Shown here one piece after another: positions 45,921-64,000 of a DNA stretch of 64,000 nt. The notes beneath the pieces were generated by a model. It did not search any database and was not told the DNA's origin. It saw only the letters and a list, made by a program, of their open reading frames with translations. Position numbers and translations under genes: made by a program. The stretch comes from Promethearchaeota archaeon (lineage in GTDB: Archaea; Asgardarchaeota; Heimdallarchaeia; Hodarchaeales; Hodarchaeaceae): contig JBHLMN010000017.1 in NCBI GenBank assembly GCA_048938105.1, forward strand, positions 32,001 through 96,000, written 5' to 3'. Position 1 is the first letter of the stretch. Each line of letters begins with the position of its first letter.

Positions 45921-48900
45921 TCATTTATTATTCCGTTTGAGCTTTTTCAATATAATTGTTGGTACGATCGCTATTACAACCATCATTCCAGTCATTCCAG
46001 GCACTGGTATAGATGGTGCAGCGCTTGTGGTGGTAGAGGAGGAGGAGGATTTAGTCTCAGTTGTAGTTGTTGTTGTTGTAGTAGTTGTAGGCTTTATATT
46101 TTGAATAGTAAAAAGATCAGAGATAGTCTCTTTGATTTCTCCTAATGAGCATGTAGCAACCACTTTAATCCGATACGTAGTATCATCATCAACTGTGGTG
46201 GTATCCCATTCGTAATTAGTGGTAATCAGACCTGACACCATAAGAATCCAGCTGCTCCCACCATCTGGAGAGTAGTACAACGAATAAGTAATTGAATGGT
46301 CAAAAGAATCCACTGAGAACCATTGAATCGTGATGATGCCCGACATGACTTCCCCGCCAATCGGATAGTTTATAATTGGTGGTGTGAGCGCATGGGTGTC
46401 AGGTGATACTAATGGGTAGGGATCTTGGTTTTCACTCCCAATAGGATAAGGATTATCCACGATACCGTCTCCGTCCGCATCAGGACTGGTCCAACCACTC
46501 CAGTAATTCAGGATGAAAACATTGTTTGACCCATCATCATTCGCTTGCGGGCCACTTATGAAGTGATTTCTCAAAATGGTATTGTAATCCGAATTTTCGA
46601 GATAGATTCCCTCATTGGGATTATTCGTAATAGTGTTATTGTTAATAATATTATAATGAGAGTTTCCTAAATTGATTCCATTGATTTCATTATCATGAAC
46701 ATCATTACCTGAAATCTCATTGAAATCAGCAGAACCTAAATTTATTCCTGAATCCATGTGATTGTAGACGGTGTTTCCTGTTATTCTATTGTTATTTCCA
46801 GTAATAAAAATTCCATTATTATTATCATAGAGGAGGTTTTGAGTGACATTGTTGAATAATCCATCAAGACGGATACCAGCATCGGGGTTGCTAAAGATGA
46901 TATTATAGCTAATAGTATTGTATTTTATATTATCTAAATCACCTAGAACAATACCATCACGATTATTGTTATAGATGGTATTTCCTGTGATAACATTGAA
47001 ATTACACTGTCCATCTCCTGATTCAATTCTAATTCCATCTTCCAGAGAATTATATATCTCATTATCTCTAATGATCGAATAAGAAGTTCCCCTAATATTT
47101 AATCCACAATCAGGACCATTCCCATCAATGACATTCTTGGAAACAACAATATATTCAGAACTTTCAATGTAAATTCCCAATCCGTTGTTGTTGTGAACGC
47201 TATTATTCGAGAGGAAGATATTTTTAGAGGAATCAATTTGAATCCCCCCGCTGTTTTCGTAAATGATATTGCTGGAAATAGTTATGTAAGTAGAACTTTC
47301 AATCCATATTCCCAACCAGTCATTGTTATCGATTGAATTGAATGATATATGATGATCAGAGCCTGTAACTTGAATCCCAAGTTCATTGCTAAAAATATAA
47401 TTATTGGTTACCTCGTTATTTTTTCCTCCAATCATAAATCCATTGACGTTATTAAATACCTTATTATAAGTGGCAAGGTTGTTTTCTTCACTATGATAGG
47501 GATTAATTTGGATCGCGAACTCAGAGTTGTATACAATATTATGAGATATGTAATTACTCCGACATTCCCATAACGAAATTCCCCGTCGGTCATTGTTTCC
47601 TGCTACTGTGTAATTAATTATATTGTAGCTAATAATGCAGTTATCGGACTCACTAATGACAATCCCTGCAAAATTATTATCACACGCGGTATTATTGGAG
47701 ATTTCGTTCTCGTAAGACCATAAAATAAAGATTCCATCATATGTATTCCAGTAAGCATGATTGTTAGTAATTATATTTCGACTAATATAACTGGATACCA
47801 TCCCTTCGTTATTATATACCCAGATCCCATTTTCTTTGTTCCCAAATACTGTATTATTATCAATCTTATTGTAAGTAATGTCATCCTCAAGCCGGATACC
47901 ATTCAAAATGTTATTATAAGCTGTATTATGACAAATCATATTTTTAGAAGAAGAATAAAGACGAATACCATCTCCATTAGTATCATAAACAGTGTTCTTG
48001 GCAATTGTATTATTTTGGGAAAAGGATGATAATTGAATGCCAACCCATTCATTATTGTATACTAAGTTATAAGATATGGTAGTATTATGAGAAGAAGTGA
48101 GAGAAATTCCCTCATTATTTTTGTATATAGTATTATATTCTATGATATTAAGATCCGAAGAAGAAAGGGTTATTCCATTCGCAGGATTACGATGGATAAG
48201 GTTCTTGAAAATAAAATTTTGACTTGATTCATCAAGATTGATTCCTCCCCACTTGTTATTAGAAATCATATTACTAACAATGATGTTATCATTCGAGGAT
48301 CCTCCTTCACCAAGCCATATTCCATACTCAAAGTTACCGAAAACGGCATTATTGACAACACTATTATTGTTGGACGACCAACCAAGTTTTATTCCAGTCC
48401 AACTGTTCCTGTAGACCGTATTGTTGATAATTGAATTATAATCAGATGATTCTACCCAAATACCGTCATAACCATTGTGGTAAATGATATTTTCTTCAAT
48501 AATCCCATGAGTTACATTATGGAAATATATGCCAGGATTTGACCCGAATAAACCATTAAGGATATTATTTGCAATTCGAAAATATAGCGATGTATCACTG
48601 ATCGCGATTGGGGAGGCAGCCGACGTTGTAATATTATATCCTTCAATCCGAATGGGATCTGCAATGGTGCCCATTCCAGGGAATGAAGAGTTGAGTTGGG
48701 CATCAGATGTTATTGAAATAAAACCATGGGGAGTGTATATTTTGGTCACTATATTCATATTAGTCATCCATTGGGCTAAATTAGTCGAATTAGTGGGAAC
48801 AGTGATCTCTCCGCTGATGATCTTATTTCTAACGGTTACATTCACTTCTTGGATTTTGTCAAAACCAATTTCATCTTTCGTATAAGTTAAAGGAGATAAT

Positions 48901-50036
48901 CCAACCCCATTCTCAGCCATTCTTAATGATTGAACGTCAGCACTCCAATTCGAATTATATACATCCTGAATAGCATTATAAACTGCAATGTCAACTCTTT
49001 TCATCATAGAACAAAGAATTCGACCAGGGAAAAGAAAATCTTGGTCTGCATCAACACCAATGGCATAGAAACCTCCTCCCTGTTCATTTGTTGATTCTAA
49101 GGCGCCAAATCCGCTAGCTCCAGCAGCAACATAGATTATATCCACTCCCTTCGCCCACATGGCTTCCGCGATATTTTTACCCGTTACAGGATCACCCCAC
49201 GCGCCAACAAAATCTTCAATGACCTCGATATAGCTATCATTCTTTTCATAAAACACCCCAGCCTTATAACCAGCCCAAAATTCACGAATTAATGGAATAT
49301 CCATACCTCCAATAAATCCCACTTTTCCTGTCTGGGTCATCAGACCAGCCATTGCCCCTGCAAGGAATGAGCCTTCTTGCTCCTCGAATAAAACAGACCT
49401 AACATTTCCTTGAACAACGACTTGGTCAATTAACACAATTGGCTGTGCTGGATAATTTATAGCTGTTATATTCACAGCTGATATTTGATCATATCCAATT
49501 GTAACGATTAAATCATAAATACCAGAGGCTGCATAATTGTCCAACATACCTAAATATTCGCTGCTATCAACAGGTTCTTTATAAACGAAGGTACATAATC
49601 CATCTGTTTGTGCTTTTTGAAGCCCAGCATATACCATACTATTGAAACCTAGTTCATTAATACCTTGGGCTGATGCTGCAAAGACACATGCTACATTGAT
49701 GGGAGCATTAATTTCAGTCACTTTCTGATTTGACACGGGCCGACCAGCTAATGAAGTAACAGATTCCCAGGGATAAATTACTCCTGTTTGATCAAATTGC
49801 TTCGTTGAATACAGCTTTGCTATTTTAAGTTGAAGCTTTTCTCCATTACTACCCCTAGTATTGATCCCAACGGCAAATACTAACATAAGAAGCATTATTA
49901 AGATAAATTGTTTTTTTATATTAATGTAATTTTTCACATTTATCACCTTATATCTTTCATGATATGAATCATTATTTAGGTTATGAAAAAAGCATTTTCC
50001 TGCTGTTCTATTTATTATTATTAAGAAAATGATCAA
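45921..50036 (-). CDS. Surface protein: BMP-family solute-binding domain + long NosD/pectin-lyase beta-helix + Ig-like + Thr linker + C-terminal TM (true start probably ~35-50 codons downstream)
   Basis: GFNSMVYAGL, FEEQEGSFLAG..AG..TQTGKVGFIGG, IGVDADQ, SMMKRVD (BMP); many GI.L..S..N.I..N repeats; NYWS, DGIVDNPY, DPYPL. Confidence 0.85.
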   Translation of the reverse strand: MIIFLIIINRTAGKCFFHNLNNDSYHERYKVINVKNYINIKKQFILIMLLMLVFAVGINTRGSNGEKLQLKIAKLYSTKQFDQTGVIYPWESVTSLAGRPVSNQKVTEINAPINVACVFAASAQGINELGFNSMVYAGLQKAQTDGLCTFVYKEPVDSSEYLGMLDNYAASGIYDLIVTIGYDQISAVNITAINYPAQPIVLIDQVVVQGNVRSVLFEEQEGSFLAGAMAGLMTQTGKVGFIGGMDIPLIREFWAGYKAGVFYEKNDSYIEVIEDFVGAWGDPVTGKNIAEAMWAKGVDIIYVAAGASGFGALESTNEQGGGFYAIGVDADQDFLFPGRILCSMMKRVDIAVYNAIQDVYNSNWSADVQSLRMAENGVGLSPLTYTKDEIGFDKIQEVNVTVRNKIISGEITVPTNSTNLAQWMTNMNIVTKIYTPHGFISITSDAQLNSSFPGMGTIADPIRIEGYNITTSAASPIAISDTSLYFRIANNILNGLFGSNPGIYFHNVTHGIIEENIIYHNGYDGIWVESSDYNSIINNTVYRNSWTGIKLGWSSNNNSVVNNAVFGNFEYGIWLGEGGSSNDNIIVSNMISNNKWGGINLDESSQNFIFKNLIHRNPANGITLSSSDLNIIEYNTIYKNNEGISLTSSHNTTISYNLVYNNEWVGIQLSSFSQNNTIAKNTVYDTNGDGIRLYSSSKNMICHNTAYNNILNGIRLEDDITYNKIDNNTVFGNKENGIWVYNNEGMVSSYISRNIITNNHAYWNTYDGIFILWSYENEISNNTACDNNFAGIVISESDNCIISYNIINYTVAGNNDRRGISLWECRSNYISHNIVYNSEFAIQINPYHSEENNLATYNKVFNNVNGFMIGGKNNEVTNNYIFSNELGIQVTGSDHHISFNSIDNNDWLGIWIESSTYITISSNIIYENSGGIQIDSSKNIFLSNNSVHNNNGLGIYIESSEYIVVSKNVIDGNGPDCGLNIRGTSYSIIRDNEIYNSLEDGIRIESGDGQCNFNVITGNTIYNNNRDGIVLGDLDNIKYNTISYNIIFSNPDAGIRLDGLFNNVTQNLLYDNNNGIFITGNNNRITGNTVYNHMDSGINLGSADFNEISGNDVHDNEINGINLGNSHYNIINNNTITNNPNEGIYLENSDYNTILRNHFISGPQANDDGSNNVFILNYWSGWTSPDADGDGIVDNPYPIGSENQDPYPLVSPDTHALTPPIINYPIGGEVMSGIITIQWFSVDSFDHSITYSLYYSPDGGSSWILMVSGLITTNYEWDTTTVDDDTTYRIKVVATCSLGEIKETISDLFTIQNIKPTTTTTTTTTTETKSSSSSTTTSAAPSIPVPGMTGMMVVIAIVPTIILKKLKRNNK
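46027..46091 (-). repeat. Thr/Ser-codon microrepeat encoding TTTTTTTTTETKSSSSSTTTS linker
   Basis: GTT/GTA and GAG runs on the plus strand. Confidence 0.7.
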
Positions 50037-56062: not shown

Positions 56063-56461
56063 ATGTACCTCGAAACCAATCAGAATGGAGAAACGATGGA
56101 TCGCTTGCATGAAATCGCGAGAATACTTCATGAACTCCAATCACGGATTCCTGACTTAGAAGGAGTCGCAGTTGTCTCTCGAGAGGGATTATCAATAGCT
56201 AGTGCGTTATTTACTACTGTTGATGAAGATCGAATAGGTGCTATGACAGCTGCCAGTCTTTCTTTATCAGATCGAATTGTCCTAGAATTAGAACGAGGCA
56301 TTATGGATCAGGTAATTATTACAGGGACAGATGGTTTAGTGATTATTCGCGAGGCTGGTGAACATGCAGTATTAGTAGGTATAGCTAAGACAAATGCCAA
56401 ATTAGGTCTGGTTCTCCTTGATATTAAACGAGCTGCTAAAAGGCTCGCTGGTCTGATTTAA
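56063..56461 (+). CDS. Roadblock/LC7 (MglB-like) protein
   Basis: EGVAVVSREGLSIAS, DRIGAMTAA, ELERG, KLGLVL. Confidence 0.92.
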   Translation: MYLETNQNGETMDRLHEIARILHELQSRIPDLEGVAVVSREGLSIASALFTTVDEDRIGAMTAASLSLSDRIVLELERGIMDQVIITGTDGLVIIREAGEHAVLVGIAKTNAKLGLVLLDIKRAAKRLAGLI

Positions 56462-56474
56462 CCAGGTGTTCTGA

Positions 56475-57101
56475 ATGAGTTTTTTCAATTCAATTCGTTC
56501 TAATCCTAATAAACCATTAAAATTAGTAGTTCTAGGCGAGGGAGGAGTGGGTAAGACGACAATTGCAAAGACTTTTGTCAATAACAGGTTTTACTCTGAA
56601 GCAACACAGACCATTGCTGTAGAATTCCATTCAAAGATTTTTTCAATAGGGATAGGTACTAACACAAAAATCCAAATCTGGGATCTAGGTGGACAAGAGC
56701 AATTTAAAAACATGAGAACTGTTTTCAGAAAATTCTGTGAAGGTGCGGATGGAGCTCTTCTGTGTTTTGATTTAACTGATATTGGATCTTTGTTTGCAAT
56801 TCCAGAATGGTTAGAATTCTTAGAAAACGATGCACAACGGTTCTTAATCGGGACAAAATATGATATTGCAATCTTTGAAGAACGAAACATCAATCTTGAA
56901 ACCTTTCAACAGAAATTTAATTGTGAATATTCCTTTAAATGTACAGCAAAAGATGTTAACTCAATAGAAAACATATTTAAACAGATTATAATCTCAATTA
57001 GAAATTACAAGGAAAAGCAGCTTGAGGGGTTATCAGAGAAAGTCATAGAGCGTCCTAAATGGATGGATTATATCCCAACATACCATAAAGAATTCGGATA
57101 A
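56475..57101 (+). CDS. Rab-like small GTPase
   Basis: G1 GEGGVGKT, G2 T, G3 WDLGGQ, G4 TKYD, G5 CTAK. Confidence 0.9.
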   Translation: MSFFNSIRSNPNKPLKLVVLGEGGVGKTTIAKTFVNNRFYSEATQTIAVEFHSKIFSIGIGTNTKIQIWDLGGQEQFKNMRTVFRKFCEGADGALLCFDLTDIGSLFAIPEWLEFLENDAQRFLIGTKYDIAIFEERNINLETFQQKFNCEYSFKCTAKDVNSIENIFKQIIISIRNYKEKQLEGLSEKVIERPKWMDYIPTYHKEFG

Positions 57102-57203: not shown

Positions 57204-58451
57204 ATGAAGGCCGATATTTTTAATTTAACGAGAATAACGTATGTTATAGTCCTTGGTGCTAGCATCACTAACCTCGCTGCAGGATTACTTGAACCTACGG
57301 TCGCACCATATTTGGAAATCCTCGGTGCAAGCTCTCAAGAAATTGGTACGATTTTAAGTGCGCGTTATTTAGTTGTTGCGATTGCATCTCTGCCACTCGC
57401 CCTTTTTGCGTCGCAAATAGGGCTTAAACGATTTTTGTATCTTTCAGCAATTGGTATGGTTATTGGGGGAATAATTCTATTTTCGATTGAAGGAAAAACC
57501 GCTATATTTTGGTTCTATTTGTCTATTGGCTTCGCAAGTGCCATTTTTAGCGGACCAGGGGCGGCTTTGATCGCTGAAAATACTGGTACAAAACGAATAG
57601 CAGCATTTAGCCTGTTTTTTGCGACTTGGATGATCCCAACTGCTCTTGGGGCATTAATATCGACCATTTGGTTTTGGGATATCCTTGAATATACTCCTGA
57701 AAATTTGACGAGTATTTTTCCTCTAGCGGTTTTTGTGATAATAGGAGGAAGTGTGGTTTTTATTGGTTTAATGCTTTTCGTCAATCACAAAGGAAGTACA
57801 GAAGAACTATCGACTGTTTCTGTTATCGATCAAGTTCCTATTAAGAATCAATTTCAAATATTATTCAGTCCTGTTATTGCTTTACCTTTAACTTTATTAA
57901 TTTTCTCGGAATTCTTATCAGGTGCAGGAGCAGGGTCTAGTCTTCCATATTTAACCCCCTATTTAAAAAGTATTGGCGCAACTCCAGGAGAGCTGTCCAT
58001 ATTAGTTTTTGTAATGAATGTTTTTATGGGTATAGCTACTCAATTATCTCCCATTTTAGCTAAGCGTTTTGGAGATTTGCGTGTCTTTTCCGTAACAATG
58101 ATTTTATCAGTTTCTTGTTTATTAGGAATTGTTTTTTCAACTGATTTACTTATATCAGCTTTATTTTTCATCTTCCGGGGTACTTTCGCAAATATGAACG
58201 CGCCAATAACCTCATCTCGGATGTTAACCTTCATTGAAACACGAGTACGAGCAACTGGTGTTGCAACTACTTCTACAGTCCGATGGATTGGCTGGAGTCT
58301 ATTTTCACCAATTTCAGGTGGAATAATTGACCTTTACGGATACAACATCGCGTTTACTTTCACCTCTATCATTTATATCATTGTTTTAGTGATTTTTGTC
58401 CGTGTGATCCAACGATATAAGAGTTTAGAAGAAATGAAAAACAGTGAGTAA
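57204..58451 (+). CDS. MFS transporter
   Basis: 12 TM; ASQIGLKR and LAKRFG loops; RVRATG. Confidence 0.87.
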   Translation: MKADIFNLTRITYVIVLGASITNLAAGLLEPTVAPYLEILGASSQEIGTILSARYLVVAIASLPLALFASQIGLKRFLYLSAIGMVIGGIILFSIEGKTAIFWFYLSIGFASAIFSGPGAALIAENTGTKRIAAFSLFFATWMIPTALGALISTIWFWDILEYTPENLTSIFPLAVFVIIGGSVVFIGLMLFVNHKGSTEELSTVSVIDQVPIKNQFQILFSPVIALPLTLLIFSEFLSGAGAGSSLPYLTPYLKSIGATPGELSILVFVMNVFMGIATQLSPILAKRFGDLRVFSVTMILSVSCLLGIVFSTDLLISALFFIFRGTFANMNAPITSSRMLTFIETRVRATGVATTSTVRWIGWSLFSPISGGIIDLYGYNIAFTFTSIIYIIVLVIFVRVIQRYKSLEEMKNSE

Positions 58452-58769: not shown

Positions 58770-60158
58770 TTGATGCGAATGTCTGATTCATCATTAATAG
58801 ATGTCATGAGAAGAGCTGAAACAGGCCCAATTTGTCTGGAAAAGGATTTTGATAGAAATAAATTAAGAATAAAACTCCAAGAGGTTATAAAAGAGTATAA
58901 TATCTCATATAATCCAGATTTTTTAATTCCGAATGATAATGACTTAGCGGACGCGCTGTTTAATGCTGCATTGGATCTTTATCTGGAAATAGGTACCTTA
59001 TGTGTGAGTACACACCGACAAATCAAGTTTGAAGAAACAGAAATCAAGGTAGCTTTACAGAATGCAGCTAAACATGTTATATTTGGTGAGGGGTCTGATA
59101 CAAGAGAAATGGCACCTCGAAAGATAGAAGATCAAACTCCTCCTCTTTGCTTAACTTCAGGTGGAGGTGAAATCTCTGAAGACATCTACGTTCAAGTAGT
59201 TCAGAGTTACGCACAAAATTCCCTAGCTGACACTATAAGTGGTGGATGTCCATTGCACACCATTTTTGGTATTGCTCCCAAAGCAGGTACTCCTGCAGAA
59301 GTATTAGCATCTATGTACAATGTTATCTATTCAAAAGAGGGAGCAAAAAGAGCAGGTCGTCCTTTGATAGGTTTTCATAATCTACTCGGAACTGCTCTCT
59401 CAGCAGCAGGGTATATCTCCGCAAGTCAACCCGAACTTGGTGTTAGACCTGTTGATGGAAACCTCATTGCTTCTCTTGCTGAACTTAAAACGGATTACAA
59501 TCAGCTTACTAAAGCCTTATATTACTCTCAGCGAAAAAATGTCCTGTCAGGAGCTGTATACGTACCATTGATGGGAGGATACGGTGGAGGGCCTGAAGGA
59601 ACTGCAATTGTCACTCTAGCACACCATCTGCAAGGACTTCTTGTCCACGATGTTTCTTATGCAGACTTTCCAGTTACCCATCTAAGGTATTCTTGTAGTA
59701 CAGCGCGAGAATCCTTATGGGTCGCTAGTATCGTTGGCCAGGCACTTAGTCGAAATACTCATCTCTTAACTGCTACTGAAGCCATCACTGCTGCTGGTCC
59801 CTGTACAGAAATGTGTTTACTAGAGGTTGCAGCAAGTTCGATTGTTGGTACCGTTTCAGGTATTCATATAAATAACGCATCTGCAACAAAAAGTCAATAT
59901 CTCGATCGTGAAACAGGTATGGAAGCTAGAATAGGCTGTGAAGTCGGCCATGCAACCACAGGTTTGAAAAGAACTGATGCAAACGAGTTAGTGACCCAAC
60001 TTGTTGCTAAATATGAGCAGAAGCTAGGAAATCCACCCCTTGGCCATAGGTTTCAAGAATGTTATGATATAAATACTGTAAAACCTTCTAAAGAGTATTT
60101 AAATGTTTATAAACGGGTAAGAAAAGTATTACAAGAGCTGGGACTCAATTTAGAGTGA
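58770..60158 (+). CDS. mtmB: MtmB-family monomethylamine:corrinoid methyltransferase homolog, pyrrolysine-free (His)
   Basis: RAETGP, THRQI, GRP, ELK, GGYGGGPEG, AGPCTEMCLLE, TGMEAR, FQECYD; no internal stop. Confidence 0.88.
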   Translation: MMRMSDSSLIDVMRRAETGPICLEKDFDRNKLRIKLQEVIKEYNISYNPDFLIPNDNDLADALFNAALDLYLEIGTLCVSTHRQIKFEETEIKVALQNAAKHVIFGEGSDTREMAPRKIEDQTPPLCLTSGGGEISEDIYVQVVQSYAQNSLADTISGGCPLHTIFGIAPKAGTPAEVLASMYNVIYSKEGAKRAGRPLIGFHNLLGTALSAAGYISASQPELGVRPVDGNLIASLAELKTDYNQLTKALYYSQRKNVLSGAVYVPLMGGYGGGPEGTAIVTLAHHLQGLLVHDVSYADFPVTHLRYSCSTARESLWVASIVGQALSRNTHLLTATEAITAAGPCTEMCLLEVAASSIVGTVSGIHINNASATKSQYLDRETGMEARIGCEVGHATTGLKRTDANELVTQLVAKYEQKLGNPPLGHRFQECYDINTVKPSKEYLNVYKRVRKVLQELGLNLE

Positions 60159-60167
60159 GTTCAGTAA

Positions 60168-60668
60168 TCAAATTTTTGAAAGAAGAGTTATAAACTCTTC
60201 CTTATCAAAGGATTCATTCAGATCTAAAGTCAGAGGAGGAGAAAAGACAGGATCTATTCGATAAAAATCTGGTATAGCTAAAATATTCTTATCATGGGTT
60301 GCTATTTTCACGACATTCCTGTCCTTCATCGTTGCTAAGATTGATGCATCTCGTCCTCCAATCCCATGGATTCGATAATCTCCTAAGAGAGTCATTGATT
60401 CTGCTAAAAGCCGCACATCAAAATCTGCAAGAATTACATTCTTAAGAGCAATGATTCCTAATGCTGCATTATAAGCTGTAGTAAAATCTACAGAAGGCTT
60501 CTTAGAAATAGAATGCAGTACTTCTAATGGGATTATAGTGTTTAATACTATCTGTTCCTGGGATTGAAGAACTCCGTCCTTACCCCTTAACCAGCTTTTT
60601 ACATTCTTTGATTCTGGTGCATAGGGATCATAATTATAAATCCAAATCATTGAATCAATAGTGATCAC
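60168..60668 (-). CDS. vapC: PIN-domain (VapC) toxin
   Basis: IDSMIWI, E, GGRDASILATM, IATHDK. Confidence 0.85.
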   Translation of the reverse strand: MITIDSMIWIYNYDPYAPESKNVKSWLRGKDGVLQSQEQIVLNTIIPLEVLHSISKKPSVDFTTAYNAALGIIALKNVILADFDVRLLAESMTLLGDYRIHGIGGRDASILATMKDRNVVKIATHDKNILAIPDFYRIDPVFSPPLTLDLNESFDKEEFITLLSKI

Positions 60669-60679
60669 CTTGAAATCCC

Positions 60680-60913
60680 TCAGAACAACTTTTCGAATTT
60701 GATTGGTGAATTTGTTTCTTGTTTCAGGGATTCGCTGATATTATCGGAGAGATTCTCAAACTCTTTAGCTGAAAGGACTTTTTTTATAAGCAGAAAATCT
60801 TTAATTATCGATAAGTTCAGTTCTACTCCAGCTGTTAATCCTAACTTTTTTCGCAATTCTCGCGGGATAGTAATTCTACCTTTTTCATCAATTGAAACTT
60901 TCATAAATACCAC
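60680..60913 (-). CDS. vapB: AbrB/MazE-type antitoxin (VapB)
   Basis: IDEKGRITIPRELRKKLGL..G; directly upstream of the PIN gene. Confidence 0.88.
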   Translation of the reverse strand: MVFMKVSIDEKGRITIPRELRKKLGLTAGVELNLSIIKDFLLIKKVLSAKEFENLSDNISESLKQETNSPIKFEKLF

Positions 60914-60962
60914 TAAGTGGGCCGAGGTGGGAATTCATTAAAATTTTTCTGTATGGTCTTAA

Positions 60963-61490
60963 CTAGAGAAACTCCGTTAAAGTCTTTTTTTGTGATTCTA
61001 AAGCCAAGAGCTTTTCTTTTCTCCACAGTCCTCCACCATATCCATGTAATTTTCCATTACTAGCAATCACACGATGACAAGGGACAACAATAGCAACGGG
61101 ATTATTCCCATTTGCTCGCCCAACTGCTCGGGAGGCAGATGATTTGCCTATTGTTTTTGCTATCTCTCCATAGGATCTAGTTTCTCCATAAGGAATCTTT
61201 TGTAATGCGTTCCAAACAGAGGTTTCAAAAGGAGTGCCTCGTAAATCTAGTGGAATAGAAAAATCACGTAATTTCCCGTTAAAATATTCTTTCAGCTCAA
61301 TTTCAAGCTTATCAAGAATCGGATGTGATCCTTCAATGCAATCAAGTCGGTACCATTTTTTGTATCGTGTTTTAATGTTGAATAAGTCATGCCTATCTTT
61401 GAATTCAAGAAGACAACAGCCTTTAGAGGTTGTACCAACGATTAAGTCACCTAAAGGGCTATCCAAATATCGATAGACTAGTTTAGACAT
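60963..61490 (-). CDS. ogt: Methylated-DNA-protein-cysteine methyltransferase
   Basis: SPLG, GTPFE..VW..L..IPYGETRSY, RAVGRANG.NP, VPCHRVI, YGGG; ATG 61490 overlaps the adaA stop. Confidence 0.93.
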   Translation of the reverse strand: MSKLVYRYLDSPLGDLIVGTTSKGCCLLEFKDRHDLFNIKTRYKKWYRLDCIEGSHPILDKLEIELKEYFNGKLRDFSIPLDLRGTPFETSVWNALQKIPYGETRSYGEIAKTIGKSSASRAVGRANGNNPVAIVVPCHRVIASNGKLHGYGGGLWRKEKLLALESQKKTLTEFL

Positions 61491-62025
61491 GGCGAGTCTC
61501 TCCAGGAGGGTGTCCAAATTCTTTAGAGAAAGCAGTTCTGAACCCACTATTGGACTTATATCCACAATGAGATGGGAGCTTTTTAACCCTCATTCCTTTT
61601 CTGAGTAATTCTTTTGCGTAAGCTAAGCGAAGTTTACGGTGAAATGCCATTGGAGTTAACTGATAATGATTTTTGAAATGCCGTCTAATAGTAGAGATCT
61701 CTACTCCTGAAATCCGAATCAAAGTTTTCTCATCAATTCTCTTTGAAACATTCCTTTTCATATAAGAAAGAACCTTTTCCAACCAATTAGGAACATTATT
61801 GGGAAATAAATCTGGTTTACATCGTTTACAGCTTCGATATCCTGCAACAATTGCTTCTTCTCTCGTTGAAAAGAATACCATGTTTTTCTCCAATGACAAT
61901 CTTGCTTTACATGAAGGAAGACAGAATATTTTCATCGTCCGCACCCCCACATAAAAATATCCATCGTATGAAGCATCACGTCTTATTCGTGCACTAACCA
62001 TTTCTTCATACGTAAGTTTTTTCAT
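61483..62025 (-). CDS. adaA: AdaA: Ada metal-binding methylphosphotriester methyltransferase plus AraC-type HTH
   Basis: RRDASYDG.F..GV.T..IFCLPSC...GYRSCKRC.P; AraC-like tail GYKS.SGF..AF.KEFG.PP; GGAG SD before ATG 62025. Confidence 0.9.
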   Translation of the reverse strand: MKKLTYEEMVSARIRRDASYDGYFYVGVRTMKIFCLPSCKARLSLEKNMVFFSTREEAIVAGYRSCKRCKPDLFPNNVPNWLEKVLSYMKRNVSKRIDEKTLIRISGVEISTIRRHFKNHYQLTPMAFHRKLRLAYAKELLRKGMRVKKLPSHCGYKSNSGFRTAFSKEFGHPPGETRHV

Positions 62026-62146
62026 GATGAGAACTCCTTTCACGATTATTTTAAACATTGTGCCTATTTTCGAGCAAGTAATTCGATATCACATGAATTC
62101 AGGATTTTCTTTTAATGAATAGAATGTGCAATGTAAAAAAAGATTA

Positions 62147-63532
62147 CTAGTAAATGAACGGAACACCGAGATCGTCAAGCTGCTTACGAATAACTTGATA
62201 AAGATCCAAATATTCTGTTGAAGGCTTGCACCGCTGTACGTCATAACATTCTCGAAAATCTTTACCTAATGGAGCTTTCTCTATCCTATCTTCGTAAGTC
62301 TTGAGAAGAGTAAGAACAAGCTCATTAACATCACTTCTTGACAGTTGCTCTTTTGTTATTCCCAACCCTACTTCAGCAGCCATCCGTGCTTCCAATGGAG
62401 TAGCATAGTTTTTGTGTCTATTTTTTGCAACAGCCATTATCCAGAGATTTGAACCAGAAACAACTGAAGCAAGAGCGTGAGTTGCTGCCTCTCTTAAAAC
62501 CATGGGTGTACATGGTCCAGCAGCAGCATAACTAGCCGATAAAGAGATTAAATTACTGTTACGCGCTAACGCTTGGTAAGTTGTTGTCAATACCCAGAGA
62601 AGCTCCCGTGTTGTATTGCAGGTGTGCTTTAAGTGAAAGGGAAAGTAAACCATGAAATGTGCCTGATTCACAAGTAGACCCATTAAGTGATACGCAAGTC
62701 CAACAATAGCGGTTCCTTCGGGCCCTCCTGCATAACCACCCATAATAGGCCCAGCCAATGCCCCTACGAAACAGCCATAGCTGTGGAAATGTACCATTTT
62801 GTTCAGTAGAGAGTTATTCACTTTTAACTCCGTAATACTTGCCACAAAACGCCCATCAGTCAGTCTCTCTCCCCATTCAGGATTACTTGCTGCAATTTGC
62901 GCAGCATCAGATTCCGCAGTTCCAACACTTTTAAGAAAGATTCCAGGCCGACCCACTCTTCGGGCAGCCTCCCGAAACATCATGGCATGAGAAACAGATC
63001 CCTTTACTTCTGAGGGATATCCTGAGCGAATGGGCATCCCTTCTATCTCATCAAGGATGGGAGCACAGACTCCATCTGCTAGAGGCTCCTGCAAGTAAGC
63101 CATACTCATTGGGACAAAAAGATCTTCATCACAAGTGATGTCAGGTGTGAACATACAGAAAGGCTTTCGAGAATCTGTTATTTGTCGATTTGAAATCTCT
63201 CTCGAATCACGTCCAAATCCTAATGTGAACCTGCCAGGGTAGTTTCCGAGAGCCTCTTTCACCTCTTCTTCTGTAAATAAAACCCTTCTATGAGTATCAG
63301 TCACCAAAGTTCCCACAGTCAGGTAAAGATCTTTTGCAGCGTCCCAAAGATTATCTACTAGAGTATTATCTTCTGGAACTGGTGTTTGGGGATCAAAATG
63401 AATATCATATTCCTTGATAATCCTCCGCAATTCAGGAACTAAGAATTTAAGGTCGAAATCCTTTTCTAAACAAACTGGCCCATTTTGTGCCCTGTCCAGT
63501 ACTTCATTGATACGCCATGGAGGAGTTCCCAT
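62147..63532 (-). CDS. mtmB: MtmB-family methyltransferase homolog, pyrrolysine-free (Lys)
   Basis: DRAQNGP, TDTHR, GRPG, ELK, PIMGGYAGGPEG, AGPCT, TPLEAR, FRECYD; ATG 63532 preceded by GGTGA; no internal stop. Confidence 0.88.
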   Translation of the reverse strand: MGTPPWRINEVLDRAQNGPVCLEKDFDLKFLVPELRRIIKEYDIHFDPQTPVPEDNTLVDNLWDAAKDLYLTVGTLVTDTHRRVLFTEEEVKEALGNYPGRFTLGFGRDSREISNRQITDSRKPFCMFTPDITCDEDLFVPMSMAYLQEPLADGVCAPILDEIEGMPIRSGYPSEVKGSVSHAMMFREAARRVGRPGIFLKSVGTAESDAAQIAASNPEWGERLTDGRFVASITELKVNNSLLNKMVHFHSYGCFVGALAGPIMGGYAGGPEGTAIVGLAYHLMGLLVNQAHFMVYFPFHLKHTCNTTRELLWVLTTTYQALARNSNLISLSASYAAAGPCTPMVLREAATHALASVVSGSNLWIMAVAKNRHKNYATPLEARMAAEVGLGITKEQLSRSDVNELVLTLLKTYEDRIEKAPLGKDFRECYDVQRCKPSTEYLDLYQVIRKQLDDLGVPFIY

Positions 63533-63584
63533 TTTTCTCACCAAATATTTTTTCTTATTCAAAATAAACAGTAGATCTTTTGAT

Positions 63585-64000
63585 TTAGAACCAGACCAAA
63601 ATTTCAGATAATTTCTTTCTTTTTATATCAGGAACGGTTACATCTTCTTTTGGAAATCCAATAGGCATTATAACAAACGCTTTCTCGTTTTTAGGCCGTT
63701 TTAAAAGATTTCGTAGAAAATTCATACTGATAGGTGTGTGTGTTAATGTTGCTAAACCTGCATTATGGATGGCCATGATGAGTATCCCAACAGCAATTCC
63801 AACACTCTTAGTTACGTAATAATTTTTTCGTTTGTTATTGAATTCATCCAAATGATATTTTTGTTGAAAAACAACTATTAGATAGGGAGCTATTTCTAGA
63901 AACGGTTTTCTCCAAGTTGTTCCTAAAGGAGCTAAGTCTTGACGCCACTCCTCTGATATTTTACGTTCGTAAAATTCTTTTTCTTCAAGTTCTGCAGCTT
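63585..64000 (-). CDS. Iodotyrosine deiodinase-like nitroreductase-family flavoprotein; 5' end outside window
   Basis: Hand-extended frame: AAELEEKEFYERKISEEWRQDLAPLGTTWRKPFLEIAPYLIVVF...YYVTKSVGIA...GLATLTHTP...RPKNEK. Confidence 0.8.
   Translation of the reverse strand, partial: AAELEEKEFYERKISEEWRQDLAPLGTTWRKPFLEIAPYLIVVFQQKYHLDEFNNKRKNYYVTKSVGIAVGILIMAIHNAGLATLTHTPISMNFLRNLLKRPKNEKAFVIMPIGFPKEDVTVPDIKRKKLSEILVWF

Follow-up and report, generated by a model that had tools for sequence, protein, structure and literature searches.

Two convergent genes of the MtmB family

The window analyzed here, a stretch of 64,000 nucleotides (nt) from a Promethearchaeota archaeon of the Hodarchaeales (GenBank assembly GCA_048938105.1, contig JBHLMN010000017.1, positions 32,001 to 96,000 of the forward strand), carries two genes for homologs of the monomethylamine methyltransferase MtmB that lack a codon for pyrrolysine (Pyl). 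The genes are called MtmB_A (A; 58773-60158, plus strand) and MtmB_B (B; read from 63532 to 62147 on the minus strand); C27, C31 and C49 denote other contigs of the same genome, G genomes and L fetched loci. Counted from the first TTG, the open frames comprise 462 codons for A (58770-60158) and 471 codons for B (62147-63562). In database gene calls for identical proteins translation begins at the ATG codons at 58773 (A) and 63532 (B), which gives 461 amino acids (aa) each and leaves the upstream TTG of B at 63562 unused. Neither gene contains an in-frame stop codon, TAG included, both are full length, and they converge with 1,988 bp between them.

The Pfam model MtmB (PF05369, cut-off 25 bits) matched A with 389.5 bits (E 2.7e-116) and B with 332.8 bits (E 4.3e-99), with alignments spanning profile positions 3 to 449/450, and phmmer aligned residues ~10-458 with MtmB1 from Methanosarcina barkeri (1tv2/1l2q; E 2.7e-83 for A and 5.7e-68 for B). 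These matches and the open frames bear out the original prediction, made from the letters of the DNA, that two full-length and convergent MtmB-like open reading frames without internal TAG are located about 2 kb apart. By homology of sequence and fold, A and B belong to the MtmB family, and they are 42% identical to each other. The proteins already carry the NCBI annotation monomethylamine:corrinoid methyltransferase, no NCBIfam equivalog matched either of them, and near-identical NCBI proteins carry the names Hodarchaeales, Hodarchaeota, Heimdallarchaeota and Ca. Hodarchaeum mangrovi. From the residues described below, A is predicted to be a non-Pyl methyltransferase of an H-N type (His202-Asn203, motif GRPLIGFHN), and B one of the K-type within a Q/K clade (Lys201, with an invariant Arg228 and Phe229).

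Residues at the pyrrolysine position and in the pocket

In PDB sequences, Pyl202 of MtmB1 is written as K (AGRPGMGV-K-GPETS), and the phmmer alignment to 1tv2 places it opposite the Lys of B (GRPGIFL-K-SVGTAES) and the His of A (GRPLIGF-H-NLLGTALS), which are encoded by AAA at 62930-62932 on the minus strand (Lys201) and by CAT at 59376-59378 (His202), respectively. TAG-bearing mtmB genes were located by scanning a genome collection with the degenerate pattern GRPGMGxOGPE, and 14 of them, from Methanosarcinaceae, Methanomassiliicoccales, Dehalococcoidales and one Tissierellaceae genome, were read through the TAG. In a joint family alignment with these 14 genes, the TAG column again corresponds to His202 in A and Lys201 in B, so the Lys and His that had been predicted for the Pyl position are supported by both alignments and by the codons, with a softness of one residue in the register of A. 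This softness has its place in the Pyl-site loop, in which A has one additional residue: in one MAFFT run with the non-Pyl sequences alone the register was off by one and Asn203 of A stood opposite the Lys of B. The assignment of His in A accordingly depends on those alignments in which Pyl sequences take part.

All 14 Pyl sequences keep the His-Glu of an SHE motif and the Glu-Gln of a DEQ motif. At the SHE position A has GNL (Asn230-Leu231) and B has GRF (Arg228-Phe229), and at the DEQ position A has AVY (Val262-Tyr263) and B has ALA (Leu259-Ala260), as expected from the earlier statement that Glu motifs near the amine site are replaced by hydrophobic residues. For a count over the subfamilies, sequences with at least 75% identity to B were taken as K-type and those with 58-75% identity to B as Q-type. 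The Pyl column was occupied by His in all 73 A-type sequences, by Lys in all 56 of the K-type and by Gln in 67 of the 71 of the Q-type. Throughout the Q/K clade the His of the Pyl-MtmB motif SHE is replaced by Arg (127/127), the Glu beside it by Phe and the second Glu by Leu. The H-type clade, to which A belongs, combines His-Asn at the Pyl site with a Tyr in place of the DEQ Gln, and a Glu at another position is conserved. Both Glu positions of Pyl-MtmB are thus hydrophobic in these subfamilies, and the changes in the pocket are clade-wide and not idiosyncratic. Nothing was found in the literature when MtmB pocket residues were looked for by number; a structural role for the replaced Glu residues is suggested by the original prediction's account of the amine site and by their conservation in the 14 Pyl sequences.

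Phylogenetic position of the two proteins and origin of the lysine variant

A search of 1.84 billion representatives with a profile of the subfamily gave, at 50% identity, 1,557 clusters with E<=1e-3, of which 417 reached E<=1e-30, and among the 150 best clusters the residue at the Pyl column varies almost freely. A tree was built on the Pyl genes, 12 named relatives, all representatives with 430 or more residues and each of the non-Pyl kinds that turned up in 71 Methanosarcinaceae genomes. In it the Pyl enzymes make up a single clade beside Pyl-free groups from Methanosarcinaceae, and A and B are found together in a separate clade of 20 leaves (support 0.886), remote from the Pyl clade. Within this clade, the H-N branch holds A and relatives named Borrarchaeum, Marinimicrobia, Desulfobacterales and Anaerolineae, and a Q/K/V branch holds B, a third paralog of the same genome located on C27, and relatives named Bathyarchaeia, [Eubacterium] cellulosolvens and Anaerolineae. 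Identities of A and B are 30-38% to Pyl-MtmBs and 21-33% to the Pyl-free homologs of Methanosarcinaceae. In the tree, A and B represent two sister Pyl-independent subfamilies of MtmB, the H-N type and the Q/K type.

Methanosarcinaceae possess several distinct Pyl-free MtmB kinds, some of them encoded directly beside Pyl mtmB genes, and one kind (in G048, G064, G078 and others) reaches 600-657 bits on the Pfam model, near true Pyl-MtmBs. A and B lie outside every one of these groups, among which MtqB, the characterized non-Pyl MtmB discussed below, must lie, the comparison with MtqB being made through the groups and not by name; two Methanosarcinaceae non-Pyl kinds with an adjacent corrinoid gene also fall outside the clade of A and B. 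When B was used as query against 400 genomes from each of the phyla of the Dehalococcoidales and of the Tissierellaceae genome, one strong match was obtained in each.

The original prediction had offered the Lys variant as an ancestral or reverted state of the Pyl site. In a dense tree of the branch of B, comprising 93 sequences after dereplication and rooted on 12 A-type sequences, the deepest lineages have T, V, I, C or A at the Pyl column and the core has Gln. Lys appears three times, in two small groups and in the large Asgard group that includes B, each time nested among Gln-bearing sequences. Because of this nesting and the distance of the whole clade from the Pyl enzymes, the Lys is, as judged from the rooted tree, a late and derived Gln-to-Lys change and not an ancestral or reverted Pyl state, and the attractive idea of a relic of the Pyl site is removed.

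Search for Pyl machinery and candidate corrinoid partners in the genome

The assembly has a size of 5.85 Mb and is 99% complete. In the genome, the best match to PylS_Cterm had 23 bits (cut-off 178) and that to PylD 22 bits (cut-off 150), pylB and pylC not being part of the search. With introns allowed, aragorn called one tRNA-Pyl(CUA) with a 34-nt intron (C11:135861-135970). This call was rejected as a likely mis-parse, since an intron placed at the canonical position 37/38 yields a tRNA-Gln(CUG) with ordinary D and T loops. Reports of Asgard genomes with 'tRNA-Pyl only' may go back to mis-parsed calls of intron-bearing tRNAs of this kind.

No gene for a corrinoid protein, a URO-D/MtbA-like protein or RamA and no pyl gene was found on the contig that carries the window, which extends to the whole contig the statement, earlier made for the window, that corrinoid protein, MtbA, RamA and pyl genes are missing. 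The rest of the genome was searched as well. The third MtmB paralog, on C27, is 82% identical to B, has a Lys site like that of B and abuts a gene for a corrinoid protein with B12-binding_2 and B12-binding domains. A RamA/RACo-type activase of 633 aa is encoded on C31 (RACo_C_ter, E 2e-70; Raco_middle; RACo_linker). In the genome check for pyl, mtmC-like and ramA genes, PylS and PylD thus stayed below threshold, and a corrinoid protein and a RamA-like protein were located on C27 and C31.

Candidates for the acceptor side were sought in the same genome. Four or five URO-D proteins, which are divergent and MtaA/CmuA-like, were detected, and the MtaA/CmuA models matched below cut-off only. The only Pterin_bind match, considered as a possible second methyltransferase (MT2), was rejected because it is a dihydropteroate synthase (DHPS). 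The genome also encodes four Pyl-free homologs of the trimethylamine methyltransferase MttB. On C49 (L269:5190-8208), genes for an MttB-like protein, a homocysteine S-methyltransferase (PF02574) and a corrinoid protein form one tight run, which looks like a split B12-dependent methionine synthase with a donor module of the MttB type.

Distribution of the genes and linkage to corrinoid proteins in relatives

Members of the MtmB family were found in 14 of 20 genomes of the genus; the 19 genomes examined from other families of the class gave no match. Orthologs of A and B share 70-92% identity across many species and keep all family-invariant residues, and the order (MFS)-A> <AdaB<AdaA<B, with genes described below, recurs in several species of the genus. 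In genomes of an Asgard lineage named Borrarchaeum (G150, G165), the gene immediately after an A ortholog with 71% identity encodes a corrinoid protein that is 72-74% identical to that of C27. An in-frame TAG suspected in this ortholog was rejected, as the TAG is located upstream of the start and the gene has His. A Borrarchaeum-like genome also contains a K-type MtmB, 81% identical to B, in a run of genes for an aminotransferase of class V, a cupin, an enolase-superfamily protein of the mandelate racemase/muconate-lactonizing enzyme (MR/MLE) group, the K-type MtmB and a thiamine pyrophosphate (TPP) enzyme (L262:5256-11142, G150:C4). Between the two Asgard classes, identity is 81-83% for the K-type and 71% for the A-type, which hints at a lateral transfer of the K-type.

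With a subfamily profile, 80 metagenome loci were retrieved, and a corrinoid gene is present in 61 of them. Of the Q/K-type genes 22 of 25 have it as a direct neighbor, as do 46 of 67 genes of other types. MttB homologs (29 loci), RamA (11), URO-D (6) and MtrH (5) also occur in these loci, and a complete cluster with the order UROD-MtrH-UROD-CoP-RamA-CoP-MtmB-CoP-MtmB(Q), in which CoP stands for the corrinoid protein, is found in L308, L341 and L347, all from one lineage. A second MtmB of the other type accompanies the Q/K-type gene in 14 of 25 loci, and an H-type and a Q/K-type gene share one locus in at least five distinct lineages. In L283 the pair is convergent as in the window, with the corrinoid gene between the A-type and the Q/K-type gene, and in L287-L292 the arrangement is a tandem H-type > CoP > Q-type. 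Both subfamilies are linked in genomes to genes for corrinoid proteins, and from this linkage and the homology to MtmB both are taken to be genuine corrinoid methyltransferases of the substrate-specific class (MT1) that tend to travel together. The paralog and corrinoid protein on C27, the RamA-like gene and the recurrent pairing of H-type and Q/K-type genes had escaped the original prediction.

By synteny, the window looks like an ancestral A> <CoP<Q/K unit from which the corrinoid gene was lost and in which adaA and adaB took its place. If a corrinoid partner was lost, one or both window copies might be redundant or decaying duplicates without methyltransferase function, as might be suspected from the lack of an adjacent corrinoid gene, which most relatives have, and from the close similarity of B to the C27 copy, of which it would be a recent duplicate. 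However, both frames are intact and full length, the orthologs are kept at the identities given above with all family-invariant residues, and the A/B pair is syntenic across the genus, so that decay is considered highly improbable.

Neighbors of the two genes in the window

Upstream of A and in the same direction, with a gap of 321 nt, lies a gene for a transporter of the major facilitator superfamily (MFS; 57204-58451, plus strand; Pfam MFS_1, E 1.5e-25), a candidate substrate importer, which is retained in G007, G012 and the metagenome locus L276 and absent in G009. Just upstream of this MFS-MtmB_A unit, genes for a Roadblock/LC7 protein and a Ras/Roc-like small GTPase (56063-57101, plus strand), a typical Asgard 'eukaryotic signature' pair, are conserved in the genus. 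Between A and B, a PIN-domain protein is encoded at 60168-60668 on the minus strand (Pfam PIN, E 9e-7); no homolog was detected by tblastn in the loci L222-L229 of relatives, and this gene is probably unrelated to the MtmB genes.

B belongs to a co-oriented run on the minus strand (60963-64000) with the order iodotyrosine deiodinase (IYD)-like > MtmB_B > AdaA > AdaB and gaps of 52, 88 and ~2 nt. The first gene encodes a flavoprotein of the nitroreductase family (63585-64000, running off the window; to L040:9586-10263) that matches PDB 5ko7 with E 9.6e-79 and mouse and human IYD with E ~1e-63, and in G012 such a gene is also found upstream of a corrinoid gene and a K-type MtmB. The AdaA-like regulator (61483-62058) combines an Ada-type zinc methyl-acceptor domain (Ada_Zn_binding, E 1e-25) with an AraC-type helix-turn-helix (HTH_18, E 6e-18) and follows B in this genome (G000) and in G007, G009 and G011. 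The gene for an O6-alkylguanine-DNA methyltransferase of the AdaB/Ogt type (60963-61490; DNA_binding_1, E 3e-35; TIGR00589, E 4e-33) would begin at a probable ATG at 61490.

This run, seen in one genus only, raises a possible link between corrinoid methyl transfer, dehalogenation and repair of alkylation damage. It could mean that methyl halides, other small haloalkanes or alkylating agents are the targets of B, and perhaps of the K-type clade of the genus, within a unit for use or detoxification and repair. The close gaps, the presence of AdaA/AdaB after B in four species and one metagenome contig and the IYD-like gene in G012 agree with such a role, as do the two Glu positions that are now hydrophobic and the finding that, in Ca. 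Formimonas warabiya, dichloromethane induces no protein more strongly than a distant non-Pyl MtmB (PMC9768040). The linkage is limited to one genus, however, and so amounts to a single evolutionary observation; it is absent in G001 and G015 and at the Borrarchaeum-like K-type loci, and the 88-nt gap could hold a promoter of AdaA's own. In addition, the invariant Arg together with Lys or Gln argues for a polar or anionic ligand, Q-type relatives adjoin amino-acid genes and corrinoid proteins and not dehalogenases, and the known MT1s for haloalkanes (CmuA, MecE/C and CdmB) belong to the UroD superfamily (PMC13222342). A haloalkane substrate is therefore regarded as quite improbable.

Two further features were noted at greater distance. 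At 45921-50036 (minus strand) a secreted protein of 1,371 aa is encoded whose very numerous NxxI/GI repeats resemble those of a parallel beta-helix; it also has a linker rich in Thr/Ser and a membrane anchor at the C terminus, and it is probably a surface or S-layer-type protein. Beyond the right end of the window (L040:10383-17067), three genes in a row for a leucine-rich repeat (LRR) and TerB-C protein, a TerB-N/TerB-C protein of 1,149 aa and a BrxC/D-family ATPase (PF10923, E 5e-164) form a candidate defence island.

Proposed function and substrate

The explanation that best accounts for these data, and which appears rather probable as a whole, is that A and B belong to two Pyl-independent MT1 subfamilies with methyl donors of a carboxylate type. 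Of its parts, the first, that A and B are Pyl-independent corrinoid MT1s that do not use monomethylamine by way of Pyl, is judged very probable. They would be the substrate-specific components of methyl-transfer systems that depend on a corrinoid (vitamin B12): a methylated small molecule would be bound at the center of the TIM barrel, and a separate corrinoid protein would receive its methyl group on Co(I). In this organism the partner most likely would be the MtmC-like protein encoded beside the C27 paralog, shared among the MtmB proteins and kept active by the RamA/RACo-type activase of C31. Use of the C27 protein by A and B is assumed, because no such gene is located near either window copy. 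The substrates of A and B may be two related compounds, or the two enzymes may carry out demethylation steps that follow one another; a divergent MtaA-like protein and the homocysteine S-methyltransferase of C49 are candidates for the methyl acceptor.

Because the pocket is rebuilt and Pyl is lacking, the substrate is very likely other than monomethylamine. New substrates for non-Pyl enzymes had been anticipated by the original prediction, and this part agrees with the absence of Pyl, the sub-threshold PylS and PylD matches and the changed pocket; the class of enzymes as such, however, was already in the literature. The replacement of the acidic cavity for CH3NH3+ by Arg plus Lys/Gln, or by His-Asn, would fit a ligand with an anionic group. 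Recurrent neighbors in the metagenome loci include amino-acid permeases (9), aminotransferases (7), Asp/Glu/hydantoin racemases (9), M20 peptidases (6) and ATP-binding cassette (ABC) transporters of the branched-chain type, and they point loosely to a carboxylate-bearing N-methyl substrate. In L287 (1785-11717), L288 and L290 (contigs with the prefixes Ga0315312_ and Ga0209725_), the histidine utilization genes hutH-hutU-hutI-ftcD diverge from an H-type > CoP > Q-type unit, which suggests methylated histidine derivatives as substrates in that lineage. The substrate class tentatively proposed is that of N-methyl compounds with a carboxylate, for example N-methyl amino acids and amino-acid betaines.

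Several points weigh against this proposal. No gene for a corrinoid protein, an MT2 or RamA lies near A or B, and on the acceptor side neither MtrH nor an MT2 of the methyl-folate/methyl-tetrahydrofolate type was found in the genome. The hints from the neighborhoods are mixed, the hut association coming from one lineage with loci that are 90-95% identical, and the genus-level neighbors (MFS, IYD-like dehalogenase, AdaA/AdaB) are not amino-acid catabolic. The roles given to Arg, Lys and His derive from the alignment to MtmB1 and are to that extent putative.

A related possibility is that A and B are methyltransferases for quaternary amines (compounds like betaine, choline or tetramethylammonium) that would work just as MtqB and the non-Pyl MttB enzymes do, with no activation of the substrate. 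MtqB, the only characterized non-Pyl MtmB, uses tetramethylammonium (QMA) and choline (PMC13044021), the four non-Pyl MttB homologs of this genome suggest use of quaternary amines, and MttB-family genes occur in 29 of the 80 related loci. Nevertheless, A and B, with only the 21-33% identity mentioned above, are found elsewhere in the tree than all Methanosarcinaceae non-Pyl homologs, and their H-N or K/Q plus R signatures contrast with the Met, Val or Phe that occupies the Pyl column in the Methanosarcinaceae group closest to the Pyl clade. As carboxylate betaines are common to this possibility and to the proposed carboxylate-type donors, the two differ mainly for quaternary amines without a carboxylate. 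On the whole the quaternary-amine role is considered unlikely.

Returning to carboxylate-bearing donors, the pairing of the two types around one corrinoid gene would allow a bolder version, according to which the H-N and Q/K types form a conserved module of two enzymes and one corrinoid protein that removes methyl groups one after another from an N-methylated amino acid or amino-acid betaine, for example methylated derivatives of histidine or tyrosine; this version must be called rather doubtful. In Hodarchaeales, the methyl groups would pass through the B12 protein to methionine or an unknown thiol and not to methanogenesis or acetogenesis. If the module exists, it would represent a previously unrecognized route of anaerobic demethylation in the archaea most closely related to eukaryotes. 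With at least 417 clusters the MtmB family is large, yet no more than two activities have been established for it, on monomethylamine by means of Pyl and on QMA/choline in the case of MtqB. The locus offers a concrete handle on two big sister subfamilies and is a good target for substrate discovery, for which the neighboring genes narrow the search to carboxylate-bearing N-methyl compounds. If the proposal is true, the methyl donors used anaerobically in sediments would include a new class, and Asgard archaea near the eukaryotic stem would run B12-dependent methyl scavenging without Pyl.

Comparison with known systems

MtmB1 from M. barkeri (1NTH/1L2Q/1TV2) and the two window proteins share the Pfam family, full-length homology and the GRPG loop, GGYxGG and GPCT motifs, and relatives of A and B are linked to a corrinoid protein of the MtmC type. 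A and B differ from it in having His202 or Lys201 and no UAG or Pyl, in the replaced His-Glu and Glu-Gln of the pocket, in a host that is not a methanogen and in their position in a remote clade. The C27 copy resembles B in its Lys site and keeps its corrinoid partner, unlike the window copies.

The best functional analogy is MtqB from Methanococcoides methylutens Q3c, the first characterized non-Pyl MtmB, which was described in 2026, acts on tetramethylammonium and choline and is encoded next to its corrinoid gene (mtqBC; PMC13044021). Like A and B, it is a Pyl-free MT1 of the MtmB family with a separate corrinoid protein; it differs in that the non-Pyl homologs of the 71 Methanosarcinaceae genomes, through which it was compared, all lie outside the clade of A and B, in the residues of the site and in that no coenzyme M (CoM) pathway is evident in the present genome. 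The non-Pyl MttB enzymes MtgB (for glycine betaine), MtpB, MtcB and MtyB offer a parallel pattern, in which Pyl-free members take charged N-methyl substrates, although they belong to another protein family (PF06253 and not PF05369). Ga0180325_111810 from Ca. Formimonas warabiya, the dichloromethane-induced protein mentioned above, is likewise a Pyl-free homolog of MtmB, uncharacterized and about 30% identical to other members of the family (PMC9768040).

Non-Pyl MtmBs as a class are not new, contrary to what the original prediction implied, and Asgard members are among those already published (PMC13044021, PMC9723677, PMC9768040): a phylogeny of 1,061 MtmBs, Pyl and non-Pyl, comes with the statement that those other than the characterized ones are 'of unknown function' and occur across Asgard archaea (PMC13044021), and MtmB without Pyl has been listed in Sifarchaeia (PMC9723677). 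What the present analysis adds to these systems is the structure of two subfamilies with their site signatures, the repeated pairing of H and Q/K types around one corrinoid gene, the Gln-to-Lys polarity, the exclusion of A and B from the Pyl and Methanosarcinaceae clades and a lead to the substrate that is based on gene neighborhoods.

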